From Candidatus Altimarinota bacterium (GTDB taxonomy: Bacteria; Patescibacteriota; Gracilibacteria; UBA4473): a DNA stretch of 64,000 nt. Below, in pieces: positions 31,058 to 47,562 of this stretch (the first letter of the stretch is position 1; every line of letters starts with the position of its first letter). Where the stretch lies: positions 992,001-1,056,000 of the forward strand of contig OZ246423.1 of assembly GCA_965231215.1 (NCBI GenBank), written 5' to 3'. A model generated the notes under the pieces. That model saw nothing but the letters and a program-made list of their open reading frames with translations, ran no database searches and was not told the DNA's origin. A program made the position numbers and the translations under genes.

Positions 31058-32752
31058 ATGAAAAAATTGTGTATTGTGGCTTTGACTTTATTTATAACCC
31101 CACAAGCTTTGGCGGGTTTTATTGATGAATCTGATATTCCTGTATGGGCTGAAGAAGCCATAGAAGTGGTAAAAGAAGCGGAGATTATGAAAGGGTTTGG
31201 AGATGGAAGTTTTCGCCCTAAACAAAATTTGACCCGAGCTGAAGCCGTAACGCTTATCACAAGAGCCAAAAAAGATTTTGAAGATTTCTATAACGGAGAA
31301 CCACAATTTCCAGACGTACCAAAGGGGGTGTGGTTTGAAGAAGCCGTAGGACACGCCGCCAATCATGGCTGGATCAAAGGGCATGATGATGGATTTTTCC
31401 GACCAGGGGATAACCTGACTCGAGCTGAATTTTCAGCTATGGTAATGCGAGCGTTCCACCTAGAATCAGGAGAACCTGAAGACCTTCCCTTTGCCGATGT
31501 GTCTGATAGGTTGTGGTTTTTTGGTCCAGTGAGTGCGTTATATGAAAATGATTTACTCCGAAACGCTCGAAACAAATATTACCGTCCAGCCAATCTTGTC
31601 AGCCGAGCTGAAGCGGCTTGGACTTTTGGACAGATTGTTCAACGCCCAGGGCTTACAGGAGAAATGGGAGAAGTGAGTCATGTTGATGGAGTAAAAGTGG
31701 ATACTCGGAGAGTGGCGATTAAACCTCGAGATTTTAACGTTAATGACCAGAGCTATGATATAGAGAGACAAGCGCTCCATGCAGACGCAACTCCAGCAAG
31801 TGAATCAGAAGTAAACATGAATATTAGCTCTGACTGGAAAGACATGGGCGTTTTACGCATCCGAAACACTTTAGATCACAAAGCAGACCTAGAATCTATT
31901 CGTCTCCGAATTCGATTCGACCGAGACGATATGGGGCCAAGGGAGGGATTTTGGTTACGCCTTACAGGATCAGGAGTAGAAAAAGATCAGCGTCTCTATA
32001 GTAATGGTGGAGCCGCCTTTACCGGACTTAATAAGGCTATTGAATCAGGACATGAATTGGTATTCAAGGTATTTTTGAAGCCGGAACCAAACGAATCCTT
32101 TTATTCCACTACTGGAACGGGGAAACTCTCTCTTGTAGAGATTGGAGGGGAAGCTTTTAAATCTTTTGTAAAGAGTAATGAAGATCGATACGGAGAACTC
32201 ATTAAGGCTCCGGTGGAATATGATAATTGGGATTTTTCTAAATTTAAGTTTGAACCGGTTGTAGGGCCAGAACCAGAAGCCACTGCCGAAACTATGGCTC
32301 CAAAGCTTTATGCTGATAATGGGGTAACTTTTCAGTATCCGCCAGATTGGGAACTAGAAGAAAACTATTTAGGGGCTTTTGCCTTCCTAGTTTCACCACA
32401 AGACAATGCAGAAGACCATCTTACGGAGAATATTAATTTGGTAAGAGAACCGCTTGATATTCCTCTGAGCAGTGCTGGGATTAATGATTATATGAATGAA
32501 GTATTTGAAGAACTCAAAGTGCTCAAAAACAGCTTTAATGTTGTGAGTGATACCGAGTCACAAATTCATGGATTTAAAACGCGAGAAGTAGAATATACCG
32601 CGAATATCAAAGAGAAACCAATGCGGTTTAAGCAAGTGATTGTGTTTAAAAGTGACGAAATTTATATCCTCACCTTCACCGCAGGGAGTGAGACTTTCCA
32701 GGAACATCTTCCTCTATTTGAAGATGTATTAGAGAGTTTGGATTTTCTCTAG
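31058..32752 (+). CDS. SLH-domain surface protein with a C-terminal PsbP-like domain
   Basis: Signal peptide; three SLH repeats (GFGDGSFRP..LTRAEA, GHDDGFFRP..LTRAEF, YRPANLVSRAEA); TFQYPPDW...LESLDF. Confidence 0.9.
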   Translation: MKKLCIVALTLFITPQALAGFIDESDIPVWAEEAIEVVKEAEIMKGFGDGSFRPKQNLTRAEAVTLITRAKKDFEDFYNGEPQFPDVPKGVWFEEAVGHAANHGWIKGHDDGFFRPGDNLTRAEFSAMVMRAFHLESGEPEDLPFADVSDRLWFFGPVSALYENDLLRNARNKYYRPANLVSRAEAAWTFGQIVQRPGLTGEMGEVSHVDGVKVDTRRVAIKPRDFNVNDQSYDIERQALHADATPASESEVNMNISSDWKDMGVLRIRNTLDHKADLESIRLRIRFDRDDMGPREGFWLRLTGSGVEKDQRLYSNGGAAFTGLNKAIESGHELVFKVFLKPEPNESFYSTTGTGKLSLVEIGGEAFKSFVKSNEDRYGELIKAPVEYDNWDFSKFKFEPVVGPEPEATAETMAPKLYADNGVTFQYPPDWELEENYLGAFAFLVSPQDNAEDHLTENINLVREPLDIPLSSAGINDYMNEVFEELKVLKNSFNVVSDTESQIHGFKTREVEYTANIKEKPMRFKQVIVFKSDEIYILTFTAGSETFQEHLPLFEDVLESLDFL

Positions 32753-44077: not shown

Positions 44078-44176
44078 ATGTTTTTACCGGCTGATACTAG
44101 GTAAAATCTGCGGAGCGTCAAATTTCAAAAACTTTGATTGAAAAAATTTAATAATAAGGCATTATGCCTTCTGAAA

Positions 44177-44767
44177 ATGTCAGAAGGAATGGGCGGTCTC
44201 GAGGATTTGATGATGGGCCAGGTGTCTGAAGAAGCAAAAGAGTCCGATGAACAAATACAGGCTCGTATTGCGGCGGCTCAGGCCAAACTTGCAAAAATTC
44301 GAAAAGATGAATCAAAGGCCAAAAATTTTGATGATATTTTGGCGAAACTAATTCCAAATTTAGCTGGAAATCACCTAGAGATGGTGATCTTTTTTATTAA
44401 CCATGAGGTACCAAGTTTGACGATTTTAGCGATTCTTTCTATCGGAAATGATGAAGCAGGAAAAGTGTGCTTTGTAGAATTTCAAGAGCAGATCAAACAC
44501 AAAGCGGACTTTTCAAGTGCTAAACTTCCAGCTAAAGCAGATGAAAAAGTGTCTTATTGGTGGACGTTTATTTATGCAGCTGATCATGTAACAACGGTAA
44601 CACGTTTAAAAGACCTCAGGGAGAATGTAGATTTTGTAAAAAAATGCTCACACTACCTTGGCGTGCTACTGCATGAATTTTTGATCAATAACAAAATTGA
44701 GAACTTTAACCAAAACGCGCTTAAAAAAATCCTCAAACAATACGAAACTCAGATTTTTGCAGAGTAG
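44177..44767 (+). CDS. Hypothetical helical protein
   Basis: ORF from ATG 44177; no recognised motif. Confidence 0.75.
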   Translation: MSEGMGGLEDLMMGQVSEEAKESDEQIQARIAAAQAKLAKIRKDESKAKNFDDILAKLIPNLAGNHLEMVIFFINHEVPSLTILAILSIGNDEAGKVCFVEFQEQIKHKADFSSAKLPAKADEKVSYWWTFIYAADHVTTVTRLKDLRENVDFVKKCSHYLGVLLHEFLINNKIENFNQNALKKILKQYETQIFAE

Positions 44768-44915: not shown

Positions 44916-46226
44916 TTACTTAATCACAAACTCTACAGAAAGAATTCTGTCTTCTTCGCACTCTTTGACTCTGAACACGAATTTTTTGCCTCTCTCGGTA
45001 AGGGATAAAGACTCTCCGACTTCTGGGAATTTCTCCATTTTTTCAAGCAAGAAAAGCCCAATGGTTTTGTTCTCGTCCTCTAGTTCCCACGGCCAGAATT
45101 CTGGTGTAGTTCCGTTCATTCTTTCCTTAATAAACTCTTCGAGTTGTTCTAGTTCTACTTCGCTACTAGCGGTAAAAGATTTTTTTCCAGATTGGCGAAT
45201 TTCAAGGCGCTCTTCGTCTTGCTCATCATGAATTTCCCCAAAGATTTCTTCCAGTACATCTTCTAAAGTGATCAGTCCTACTAAACCACCATGTTCATCA
45301 TAAACTATGGCCATATGAGTTTTTTCCTGACGAAACTCATTAAGGAGCGTATCAATCTTCATCGTTACCGGAATTTTGTAGGGTTTGTTGAGAGGCAGGT
45401 TCGCAACCTTGAGGTCTTTAAATCCTTTTTCACTCATTTTTCCAATAATGCCATGGACACTTAGAATTCCCGTAATTTGATCTAGTGTTTCATGATAGAC
45501 AGGGATTCGTGAAAACTTACACTCTCGAATTTCATCAAGGGCTTCTGTAATAGTAGCGTCGTCTTTGAAGGCTGTAATTTTTGACCGAGAGGTCATAACA
45601 TTTTCAACGGTATGCTCCCCAAATTCCAAGATTTTTTCGACCCATTCTTTTTCATCACGTTCAATTTTTCCTTCAGCTTCACTTAGCTCTAGAGCGGCTT
45701 TGAGCTCATCTTCGGTCAGGCCGTGTTGTTCCTCCTCTTCTCCAGAAACATTTTGTATAAATCTGGAAAGTGGAATAACAATCGGAGACAAAAGTATTTG
45801 TAACACAGCCAGAATTGGGGCAACAAAGAGTGAAAACCTTACCGCGTGTTTATGGGCTAAACTTTTAGGGGTGATTTCTCCAAAAAGTAATATCAGGAAT
45901 GTCATAATTCCCGTGACTACTCCCACGACCAAAGCTTCACTATTTCCAGCGCCAAAACTTTCAGCACTTTTGGTGGCCATGAGCGTAGCAATGGCAGAAG
46001 CCGCCACATTTACCACATTGTTACCAATCAAAATAGTTACTAGTAACTTCTGTGGATCGGCTTTAAGCGCTTCAAGCCGAGCGATAGCCTGCAGGGTTTT
46101 GGCTTTTTCTGTTTGTTTTTTGAGAGCTGCAATACGTTCTGCCCCAACGCTAAAGAGGGCAATTTCAGCTCCAGAAAAGAATCCAGATAGAATTAAAAGA
46201 AAAAACAGAAACAAAATTTCGTTCAT
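44916..46226 (-). CDS. CNNM/CorB/TlyC-family (DUF21 + CBS pair + CorC_HlyC) putative Mg2+ transporter
   Basis: SGFFSGAEIALFS, TILIGNNVVN, FGEITPKS, FSRIPVY, HMAIVYDEHGG..GLITLEDVLEEIFGEIHDE. Confidence 0.93.
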   Translation of the reverse strand: MNEILFLFFLLILSGFFSGAEIALFSVGAERIAALKKQTEKAKTLQAIARLEALKADPQKLLVTILIGNNVVNVAASAIATLMATKSAESFGAGNSEALVVGVVTGIMTFLILLFGEITPKSLAHKHAVRFSLFVAPILAVLQILLSPIVIPLSRFIQNVSGEEEEQHGLTEDELKAALELSEAEGKIERDEKEWVEKILEFGEHTVENVMTSRSKITAFKDDATITEALDEIRECKFSRIPVYHETLDQITGILSVHGIIGKMSEKGFKDLKVANLPLNKPYKIPVTMKIDTLLNEFRQEKTHMAIVYDEHGGLVGLITLEDVLEEIFGEIHDEQDEERLEIRQSGKKSFTASSEVELEQLEEFIKERMNGTTPEFWPWELEDENKTIGLFLLEKMEKFPEVGESLSLTERGKKFVFRVKECEEDRILSVEFVIK

Positions 46227-46324
46227 AATTGAAAAATATTGATATCAAAAAAGGGTAGCTCATTGGAGCTATTGAAGTGTGTTTTCGGGAACAGCATCTC
46301 CCCAGGGTCGGGTTCGTCGGTCAT
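46223..46324 (-). CDS. Putative MgtL-like leader peptide (33 aa) coupled to the CNNM gene
   Basis: Manual translation MTDEPDPGEMLFPKTHFNSSNELPFFDINIFQL*; its TGA overlaps the CNNM ATG (ATGA). Confidence 0.65.
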   Translation of the reverse strand: MTDEPDPGEMLFPKTHFNSSNELPFFDINIFQL

Positions 46325-46347
46325 TTTTTGCAAGTGTTGTAGAAGTT

Positions 46348-46375
46348 AGTTTAACCCAAAAAATGGCGTCGTCAA
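46348..46375 (-). promoter_or_regulatory. Sigma70-like promoter for the leader ORF and CNNM gene
   Basis: TTGACG-16 bp-TAAACT on the minus strand, about 23 nt upstream of the leader ATG. Confidence 0.6.
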
Positions 46376-46455: not shown

Positions 46456-47562
46456 ATGAAAGTTGTTATCCCACAAAACGATCTTTTGGAGAGTCTTAAA
46501 ACCGTTTCTAGAGCGGTTTCCAGCGCCAACACGCTTCCGGTGCTTGGCAATATTTTAATCAAAGCTCAAGGTAAAAAATTATATTTAGCTGCTACAAATT
46601 TAGAGATATCGATTTCTACCTCAGTAGAAGCCGATATAAAAAATGAAGGAGCCATTACGGTTCCCGCTAAGGTTTTGACTTCTTATACCTCTCTTTTAGG
46701 AAAAGAAGAAGATATTGAACTTAAAGTGGTTGATGGAACAGCTCTAGAGCTTAACTCGAAAAGCTCCAAAACCAAAATTAAAGGCATTGCAGCTGATGAA
46801 TTTCCAGAGATTGCCCGAGTAGATGGAGGGACTAAACTTGATATAGAAGCTGGTACCTTCCGAGAAACGGTACACGAAGTGGCTTTTGCCGCCCAAGAAA
46901 ATTCTTCTCGCCCCATTTTAGCTGGGGTATACCTTGCGGCAAAAGGAACAGAGCTAAAAGTTGCGGCTACAGATTCTTATAGACTATCAGAGAAAAAAGT
47001 AACCCTGCCTTCAGATGTAGGGGAAGTGATTTGTGTGATACCCGTGAGAGCTTTTTTAGAGGCCGACAGATTAGCTTCTCAACACGAAGAAAATATTACC
47101 GTTACGGTTTCTGAAAACCAAGTCATGTTTAGTGTGGGCGGAACAGAACTTGTTTCTAGGCTCATCGAAGGACAATTCCCTCCCTATGAACAGATATTGC
47201 CCTCAAGCCACAAAACTTCCGTGGAAGTAGACAAAGAAGCGCTTGGTCTGGCTGTGCGAAGGGTCTCAATCTTCGCCAAAGAAAACAACCAACATATGAA
47301 ATTAGAATTCCTTAACGATGGAACCATGAGTGTGTCGACAGACGCGACTCAAATAGGAGAAGAAAAAACAACAATTCCGGTAAAGATTGATGGAGACACC
47401 AACGTTATTGCCCTTAATGCCGACTACGTGCTAGATGTGCTTGGCGCCATGGGAAGTGATGAAAAAGTGGCTTTAGAGATTGAAGGGAAGATGAATCCAG
47501 CGGTTTTTAAGCGAATTGGAAAAGCTGACTTTGTGCATTTGATCATGCCATTGAAAGTATAG
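46456..47562 (+). CDS. dnaN: DNA polymerase III beta sliding clamp
   Basis: LPVLGNIL, ATNLEISI, SRPILAGV, ATDSYRLS, SRLIEGQFP.Y, LIMPL. Confidence 0.98.
   Translation: MKVVIPQNDLLESLKTVSRAVSSANTLPVLGNILIKAQGKKLYLAATNLEISISTSVEADIKNEGAITVPAKVLTSYTSLLGKEEDIELKVVDGTALELNSKSSKTKIKGIAADEFPEIARVDGGTKLDIEAGTFRETVHEVAFAAQENSSRPILAGVYLAAKGTELKVAATDSYRLSEKKVTLPSDVGEVICVIPVRAFLEADRLASQHEENITVTVSENQVMFSVGGTELVSRLIEGQFPPYEQILPSSHKTSVEVDKEALGLAVRRVSIFAKENNQHMKLEFLNDGTMSVSTDATQIGEEKTTIPVKIDGDTNVIALNADYVLDVLGAMGSDEKVALEIEGKMNPAVFKRIGKADFVHLIMPLKV

Follow-up and report, generated by a model that had tools for sequence, protein, structure and literature searches.

In E. coli and Salmonella, the leader of the gene for the P-type ATPase importer MgtA contains a short open reading frame (ORF) encoding MgtL, on which the ribosome itself acts as a sensor of Mg2+. 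Chadani et al. (preprint, 10.1101/2021.02.02.429294) report that 70S ribosomes translating MgtL are destabilised by the EPDP sequence right after its initiator Met, that translation aborts within MEPDPT, that lowered Mg2+ exaggerates the abortion, and that the destabilisation is strongest when the exit tunnel is empty. In the present study, we analysed a 64,000-nucleotide stretch of DNA (the window) and examined a short ORF with a similar acidic/proline cluster, which is located just upstream of a gene for a CorB/CNNM-type transporter. We found that the ORF, its cluster and its position are conserved in six species of one genus. The sequence and its conservation make it very probable that the ORF is a real, translated regulatory leader. 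The full mechanism that we propose, in which the leader would sense Mg2+ by ribosome stability and feed the CNNM gene via termination and reinitiation, is in our estimate evenly balanced between right and wrong.

The same report proposes that, owing to a destabilising N-terminus in ybeX/corC, expression of this putative efflux protein rises at high Mg2+, and it used as a search criterion the presence of at least four Asp, Glu or Pro (D/E/P) among the six residues after Met. Ousalem et al. (Nat Commun 2024, PMC11282234) report that EttA, a protein of the ABC-F type, prevents ribosome drop-off on the EPDP of MgtL, and that a designed NKDEPD sequence after Met, described there as not natural in the E. 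coli proteome, makes YFP strongly EttA-dependent. Interrupting the E. coli leader ORF yoaL by a stop codon is reported to lower yoaE-lacZ strongly, and YoaL is suggested to raise mgpA at high Mg2+ in an mBio 2025 paper on MgpA and CorC, which also describes it as still unclear how mgpA and corC are regulated.

The leader ORF (hereafter uORF) is placed between a sigma-70-like promoter match and the CorB/CNNM gene (Table 1). The initial annotation of this stretch had described a 33-codon ORF, its ATGA overlap with the CNNM start, a TTGACG-16-TAAACT promoter and a hairpin followed by CCC-U6, and all of these are present on the minus strand. It had also likened the peptide to MgtL. The likeness stands at the level of the motif, EPDP directly after Met being the reported abort motif of MgtL; the window peptide holds both EPDP and DEPD.

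Table 1. Positions of the leader ORF, the transporter gene and associated features in the window
Feature	Position	Strand	Description
Leader ORF (uORF)	46223..46324	(-)	ATG at 46324; 33 sense codons, MTDEPDPGEMLFPKTHFNSSNELPFFDINIFQL; TGA at 46225-46223
ATGA stop/start overlap, uORF/CNNM	46223..46226	(-)	uORF TGA (46225-46223) overlapping CNNM ATG (46226-46224)
Acidic/proline cluster D-E-P-D-P, uORF codons 3-7	46304..46318	(-)	Conserved in relatives; codon block ACGAACCNGA
-35-like hexamer TTGACG	46370..46375	(-)	Sigma-70-like match
-10-like hexamer TAAACT	46348..46353	(-)	16-nt spacer from TTGACG; 23 nt before uORF ATG
Terminator-like hairpin	46246..46271	(-)	UAGCUC-CAAU-GAGCUA, then CCC-U6; uORF codons 19-26; -6.6 kcal/mol, z = -2.83
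CorB/CNNM-type transporter gene	44916..46226	(-)	436 aa; DUF21/CNNM, CBS pair and CorC_HlyC
dnaN	46456..47562	(+)	Divergent neighbour (Pfam); context only, outside the proposed switch

The cluster is rare in the genome, which is a single contig of 1.326 Mb with 39.9% G+C. ATG followed by zero to four codons and then by DEP[DE] occurs only once. A six-residue segment with at least five D/E/P within residues 2-13 was found in one of 1190 ORFs of at least 100 amino acids (aa) and in eight of 13,318 ATG ORFs of 8-60 codons. Two of these eight stop at the start of a long open frame, namely the leader uORF and an ORF at window 32004-32078 (MVEPPLPDL...); the latter was rejected as a second candidate, as it is located inside a 565-aa ORF in another frame. 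Among the D/E/P-rich short ORFs, the leader uORF alone abuts a real gene start. The 229-nt intergenic region upstream of CNNM is also present in a single copy; with no second copy in the genome and no long helix, a reading as a mobile repeat was rejected. A search of protein representatives with the 33-aa leader peptide gave no match, which is expected because ORFs so short are seldom called as genes.

CNNM orthologues were sought in 61 related genomes, of which 46 gave a match, and the upstream DNA was read for 30 (5 from the genus and 25 from other genera). A metagenome scan added one species (L031, identical to L032) and a repeat of L004 (L033). The initial annotation had proposed to look for the uORF in relatives, and a uORF with the cluster was found at the same place in all five genomes of the genus and in the metagenome species, i.e., in all six species that could be obtained. 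The leader peptides are MTDEPDPGEMLFPKTHFNSSNELPFFDINIFQL in the window, MIISDEPEPGPRRFSASNYEILDNRDISAVLLTM in L003, MIDEPDQPPQTHLFSHPSK in L002, MIDEPDQPPQTILFFHPSK in L004, MIDEPDQPPQRNLLSHPFKQ in L005, and MINEPDQPPQSPLLFHHSK in L031. They are 19-34 codons in length and fall into three architectures (33, 34, and 19-20 codons), in each of which the frame is open to the CNNM start. The N-terminal cluster starts at residue 3-5 and has the consensus (D/N)-E-P-(D/E)-(P/Q)-(G/P), with (D/N)EP(D/E) at residues 3-8; it reads DEPDP in the window and DEPDQPP, NEPDQPP or DEPEPGP in the relatives. Four of the six peptides have at least four D/E/P in the six residues after Met (TDEPDP, five of six; IDEPDQ, four of six, three times), and all six contain a five-of-six D/E/P segment within residues 3-10 (residues 4-10 in L031 and L003). 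The uORF stop overlaps the CNNM ATG in five of the six species, as ATGA in the window and L005 and as TAATG in L002, L004 and L031.

The six species form three deep lineages. The CNNM protein of the window is 73.5-75.7% identical to those of the other species, that of L003 is 78-81% identical to those of the short-form clade, and identities within the clade are 85-90%; ahead of the uORF, the non-coding DNA of these lineages shares only 50-55% identity. In the alignment of about 230 nt of upstream DNA, the only invariant multi-base block is ACGAACCNGA, which corresponds to the codons for (D/N)-E-P-(D/E), with the Pro wobble as the free base. Between the window (L001) and L003, four of the five differences in seven codons are at third positions, and L003 has an in-frame two-codon insertion ahead of the cluster. 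Among the short forms, codons 1-10 differ by three synonymous changes and a single replacement of D by N. Antisense coding of the conserved block was rejected, as antisense ORFs across the motif are not conserved. The substitution pattern is suggestive of selection on the peptide, the numbers being small; it is the combination of the motif, the ATG, the open frame and the stop position in three architectures that points to such selection.

In the 240 nt upstream of CNNM, there is exactly one sigma-70-like match on the CNNM strand in each of the six species, always TTGAC(G/C) with a 16-nt spacer, and the predicted -10 element precedes the uORF ATG by 13-30 nt. The stretch from the uORF ATG to the CNNM ATG contained no promoter-like site in any of the six. 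Because the predicted promoter lies upstream of the uORF and none follows its ATG, the uORF should belong to the CNNM mRNA, in agreement with the order of elements in the initial annotation. Promoter matches taken alone are at chance level (2 found versus 1.5 +/- 1.3 expected), and so are terminator matches (2 found versus 0.8 +/- 0.9 expected).

The host genome does not use Shine-Dalgarno (SD) sequences. AGGAG is present upstream of 5 of 932 long ORFs versus 16 of 932 random positions, and GGAG upstream of 15 long ORFs versus 48 random positions (932 each). The start regions in this genome are A/T-rich and G-poor. The initial annotation had noted that the CNNM gene has no obvious SD sequence, which is true; in a genome without SD use, however, the observation has no value as evidence for coupling. 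Where long ORFs lie close together, overlaps of -4 (19 cases) and -1 (9 cases) are the most frequent junctions. TGA is a stop codon in this genome, where it ends 85 of 760 long ORFs; in a member of the same class, the CNNM gene contains 13 in-frame TGA codons.

The 436-aa transporter gave Pfam matches to CNNM (6.2e-48), CBS (4.5e-14) and CorC_HlyC (4.5e-06, exactly at the cut-off). Against solved structures, the best match was 7m1t_A (3.3e-52, residues 4-334), named by its depositors 'Hemolysin, contains CBS domains', followed by CorC 4hg0 (5.1e-30) and human CNNM4 (3e-28); the name given to the CorC chains is magnesium and cobalt efflux protein. We take 7m1t to be the protein that goes under the names CorB and MpfA, from Methanoculleus. 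Judging from its family, the window CNNM protein probably exports Mg2+. The relatives found through this protein belong to Candidatus Gracilibacteria / Candidatus Altimarinota, which agrees with the 'CPR-like' (candidate phyla radiation-like) host named in the initial annotation. For uptake, the genome has CorA, encoded by a sole gene outside the window (G000:C1:767962-768882) whose start overlaps the end of the gene before it as TAATG, so that it is coupled and has no leader of its own; MgtE was not found in the genome. CorA for uptake and no MgtE, together with the same logic in print for ybeX/corC, would make a Mg2+-responsive exporter physiologically coherent.

In the mechanism that we propose, the uORF would be the first ORF on the mRNA, and ribosomes would initiate there. 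They would meet the acidic/proline cluster while the exit tunnel is still empty, and the cluster would destabilise the ribosomes of this host, so that they pause and fall off, more often at low Mg2+. Ribosomes that get past the cluster would terminate on the CNNM AUG (ATGA or TAATG) or 9 nt before it and then re-initiate, and those lost at the cluster would deliver nothing to CNNM. Translation of CNNM would thus depend on termination at the uORF, and CNNM synthesis would track the fraction of ribosomes surviving the cluster, because the survivors re-initiate at the CNNM AUG. With Mg2+ as the signal, CNNM would be high when Mg2+ is ample and ribosomes are stable, and low when Mg2+ is scarce. 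In the window species, the weak hairpin and U6 within the uORF may add transcription attenuation in the same sense. By analogy, coupling would be favoured by the usual -4/-1 overlaps of this genome, the TAATG junction of corA, the yoaL precedent and the open uORF start; the predicted probability of being unpaired in the four short forms is 0.73-0.90 for the uORF start versus 0.51-0.56 for the CNNM start.

The hairpin was part of the evidence in the initial annotation, and this part did not survive the comparison. The four short forms lack it, and the hairpin of L003 is not significant (z = -0.45); as it is unconserved in the other five species, the window hairpin would be at most an optional, lineage-specific layer. 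No conserved RNA structure was detected in the leaders of the genus (z from -1.17 to +1.35), with a small exception, a 5-7 bp hairpin UCACC...GGUGA around the CNNM AUG, seen in the short forms only. In Rfam 15, the best match scored 21.9 bits versus a gathering score of 55, and no match was obtained in the whole window. The interpretation as a Mg2+ leader given in the initial annotation thus keeps its conserved ORF, its motif type and its coupling geometry, and loses the arguments from the missing SD sequence and the hairpin. On the opposite strand of the DEPDP codons, window 46306-46322 (+) contains another terminator-like hairpin, with G-T pairs and a T-run, which points to dnaN; it probably arises only because the codons GAC-GAA-CCC-GAC form a repeat.

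Compared with MgtL, the window leader is alike in three respects: a short ORF is located in the leader of a Mg2+ transporter gene after a promoter (here predicted), an EPDP cluster is close to Met (MEPDPT versus M-T-D-EPDP, a likeness at the motif level only, as the peptides are too short for a homology test), and the ribosome would be the Mg2+ sensor (here proposed). It differs in its target, which is a CNNM/CorB transporter and not the importer MgtA, and in its output, which is probably positive and translational via the overlap, whereas MgtL acts by relief of Rho-dependent termination through alternative RNA stems. Further differences are the lack of a conserved leader RNA structure in the genus, and the host, a Gracilibacteria-type ultrasmall bacterium that does not use SD sequences.

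The proposed logic is the same as that for ybeX/corC, in which an early destabilising sequence would limit a CorC-family, Mg2+-efflux-related protein unless Mg2+ stabilises the ribosome; in that case, however, the sequence MSDDNSHSSDT is within the protein, whereas in the window a separate, overlap-coupled ORF carries a cluster of the EPDP/DEPD type. YoaL is similar in arrangement and in the kind of effect that we propose: its ORF overlaps the region upstream of a cation-stress gene that encodes a CorC domain. The target MgpA is a TerC-CorC protein, not a CNNM/DUF21 protein. The DEPD core of the NKDEPD sequence that responds to EttA is identical to the core of four of the six leader peptides, although that sequence was designed and has no link to a transporter. 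In the window species only, a hairpin and U6 lie within the leader ORF, where a translating ribosome could block them, as in trp-type attenuators. Unlike in such attenuators, the hairpin is weak and is not conserved in the five other species, and there are no runs of codons for a single amino acid.

Several observations weigh against the proposed mechanism. Conservation is limited to one genus with six species, which are in effect three deep lineages. Within it, L031 (INEPDQ) and L003 (IISDEP) have only three D/E/P in the six residues after Met, the uORF of L003 stops 9 nt before the CNNM ATG with no overlap, and the terminator-like hairpin is not conserved. The codon-position bias is merely suggestive (P = 0.11 for the short forms; about 0.045, calculated by hand, for L001 versus L003). 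With a predicted probability of about 0.5 of being unpaired, the CNNM start is not strongly sequestered, so that independent initiation would be possible. As to the host, the literature consulted reports early abortion on such clusters for ribosomes of E. coli and of eukaryotes and not for those of the present lineage, and genes for bL31, EF-P and one ABC-F protein, all of which counteract early abortion, are present in the genome. The substrate may also differ, since PaeA, a protein of the CNNM family, is reported to export polyamines.

The most probable of the alternatives keeps the leader and the coupling and assigns them another signal: the Pro-rich cluster (PDQPP, EPEPGP) would report general translation capacity (EF-P activity or proline supply, the ATP state through ABC-F, or polyamines, which the CNNM protein might export). 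EF-P and the ABC-F gene are present as required, EttA is reported to rescue both DEPD and EPDP clusters in E. coli (PMC11282234), and export by PaeA would fit polyamines. The invariant residues, however, are E and P, with D/N before and D/E after them, and not a PP pair, and PP is missing in the window peptide. The QPPQ and PEPGP stretches of other leaders do look like EF-P-dependent stretches. The nearest solved relatives of the transporter are of the CorB/CorC type, with the CorC chains named as above, and we regard this alternative as unlikely.

An inhibitory leader, in which ribosomes on the uORF occlude the CNNM start and abortion at low Mg2+ raises CNNM in the same sense as for mgtA, appears improbable to us. 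In its favour, repression of the downstream gene is common among uORFs, the CNNM start is by prediction about half open on its own, and the transport direction of the window CNNM protein is taken from its family. Against this stand the ATGA/TAATG overlaps, which are normal operon junctions in this genome, and the one tested leader ORF found before the gene for a CorC-domain transporter, which is reported to act positively (yoaL-yoaE). CorC/CorB proteins are, in addition, described as Mg2+ efflux proteins in the discussion of a paper and in the names given by PDB depositors.

Slightly less probable again is a constitutive 'loading' ORF, which would couple translation in an organism without SD sequences and sense nothing, its N-terminus being kept, for example, for a fixed low output. 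The absence of SD use and the heavy reliance on overlapping junctions in this genome would suit such an ORF. It leaves unexplained, however, why the conserved part is an acidic/proline cluster, which is found elsewhere in one of 1190 long-ORF N-termini, when the peptide outside the cluster is free to vary.

If the block ACGAACCNGA were a DNA operator or an RNA motif, the ORF would be incidental. The conserved block is short, and within the family several CNNM promoters have a TTGACGAA-like sequence as their -35 region (L007, L018 and L029; the -35 of L007 is TTGACGAACCC). The L031 variant TAAACGAACC, however, destroys the likeness to a -35 region, the block contains no palindrome, and neither conserved RNA structure nor an Rfam match was found. 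An operator also leaves the conserved ATG, the in-frame insertion and the frame open to the CNNM start in three architectures unexplained; we thus hold this explanation to be rather remote. Enterobacteria do have small proteins that act as regulators of Mg2+ transporters, but a small protein with a function of its own, e.g., as a partner of the transporter, is the least probable explanation, as there are only four invariant columns (M1, E4, P5 and P13), a length varying from 19 to 34 residues, and no hydrophobic segment in the peptides of the six species.

Outside the genus, no uORF passed a loose D/E/P filter in the 25 CNNM loci from other genera of the family. In 20 further CNNM loci of the family and class, the filter gave four matches, none of which abuts the start; one is the tail of an upstream gene, one an ORF some 260 nt upstream, one part of the CNNM protein, and the fourth L042. 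In 15 new CNNM loci of the phylum, any matches were likewise loose, and no such uORF was found at the start. In total, 60 CNNM loci outside the genus were read, and in none does such a uORF abut the start; none was seen by eye in the metagenome loci L034-L039.

A strict pattern, ATG-NNN-GAN-GAR-CCN-GAN-C, was run over 401 genomes of the class and matched in 31. It adjoins CNNM only in this genus, in the genome of the window and in G001, G002 and G003 (30 loci inspected; four further matches without a locus were left out); G004 was missed owing to the two extra codons. In the 27 inspected loci outside the genus, no CNNM gene was found within 3 kb. Several candidates were rejected: the short ORFs matched in L060 and L064 are not followed by a transporter gene, 'MTDGYLEEF...' in L006 is the C-terminus of the upstream gene, 'IIDEPS' in L007 lacks a start codon and falls on the predicted promoter, and 'SDEP' in L098 is a chance 4-mer. 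From these searches, in the data reached, the arrangement is a feature of one genus.

The CNNM orthologue is near-universal in the family (38 of 43 genomes), and CNNM-domain genes are rare in the sample of the phylum (15 of 101 genomes). The genome of the window has a second CNNM-domain gene (L115, G000:C1:355188-355664; open frame of 360 aa, Pfam CNNM 2.4e-34), upstream of which no uORF of the leader type was found. The divergent arrangement of dnaN and CNNM occurs in all seven loci of the genus and in 10 of 25 loci of other genera. Convergent with the window CNNM gene is a 209-aa ORF at window 44138-44767 (+) that has no Pfam match.

Two loci of other families contain a uORF at some distance from a CNNM gene. 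In L113, from another family of the phylum, a 39-codon uORF (MKFEESDDQPPQRVLK..., a singleton whose start is also given as MKFEESDDQPPQR...) is located at 1284-1403, a hairpin at 1378-1394 and CNNM at 1459-2736, the latter 30% identical to that of the window. The uORF finishes in the terminator-like hairpin with a U-run and stops 55 nt before the CNNM ATG. It has the 6-mer DQPPQR in common with the leader of L005, and none of 500 shuffles of the 60 non-genus leaders gave any common 6-mer. Loci orthologous to L113 were not found in 26 genomes of its family or 401 of the phylum. In L122 (the same place as L042), from another family of the class, a 39-codon uORF (MKTLQSLDLDPEP...) is located at 474-593 and CNNM at 647-1888; the uORF contains the five-of-six D/E/P segment DLDPEP at residues 8-13 and a U-rich run at its end, 53 nt before CNNM. 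The two sole relatives of L122, which are 43-45% identical and TGA-recoded, have no uORF there, and the uORF of L122 may be due to chance.

Other CNNM genes show other features at or near their starts. In 15 of the 25 orthologues from other genera, and in none of the six species with the uORF, the CNNM protein itself begins with M-(D/E)-(D/E/K)-x-P (e.g., MDEVPLL), and more distant proteins begin with MSEDP (L049) and V-EEPASSGDP (L037). Such a start may be an in-protein counterpart of the leader, or a mere topology signal. In L018 and L029, which belong to another genus, the -35 region of the promoter, some 30-60 nt ahead of the CNNM ATG, is part of an inverted repeat (in L018, TTGACGAAGTTCGTCAA); the repeat looks operator-like, i.e., like a different mode of control of the same gene. 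In L007, from the sister genus, a predicted promoter TTGACGAACCC ... CCTCTAAACT is located 20-50 nt upstream of the CNNM ATG and resembles the 5' end ATCGACGAACC and the 3' end CCTTCTAAAT of the short uORFs. An evolutionary link between promoter and uORF is possible from this likeness.

In the literature, with supplementary lists of leader peptides outside the search, we found no description of an acidic/proline leader ORF before a CNNM/CorB gene. The idea of an opposite sense to MgtL, put forward in the initial annotation, is already in print, where it is proposed for the N-terminus of ybeX/corC and suggested for YoaL and mgpA. Tentatively, and with rather more doubt than belief, we suggest that acidic/proline leader ORFs are a recurrent, independently evolved ribosome-based Mg2+ switch for CNNM/CorB exporters, which would mirror MgtL-mgtA. 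In this genus without SD use, the switch would need neither an aptamer nor a regulator protein, since drop-off of ribosomes early in the leader would be balanced against termination and reinitiation at the overlapping start. The singleton uORF of L113, with its terminator before an unrelated CNNM gene, gives a hint of recurrence.

How bacteria switch on the export of Mg2+ is poorly understood. If the proposed mechanism is true, the ribosome itself may set the amount of the exporter, and the leader would provide a testable example of positive control by ribosome stability, with the wiring of MgtL reversed. The short forms would be a minimal module of 60 nt suited to reconstitution in a defined translation system. 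The principle of sensing Mg2+ through the ribosome would then exist far outside the enterobacteria, in an uncultured, ultrasmall lineage that does not use SD sequences.

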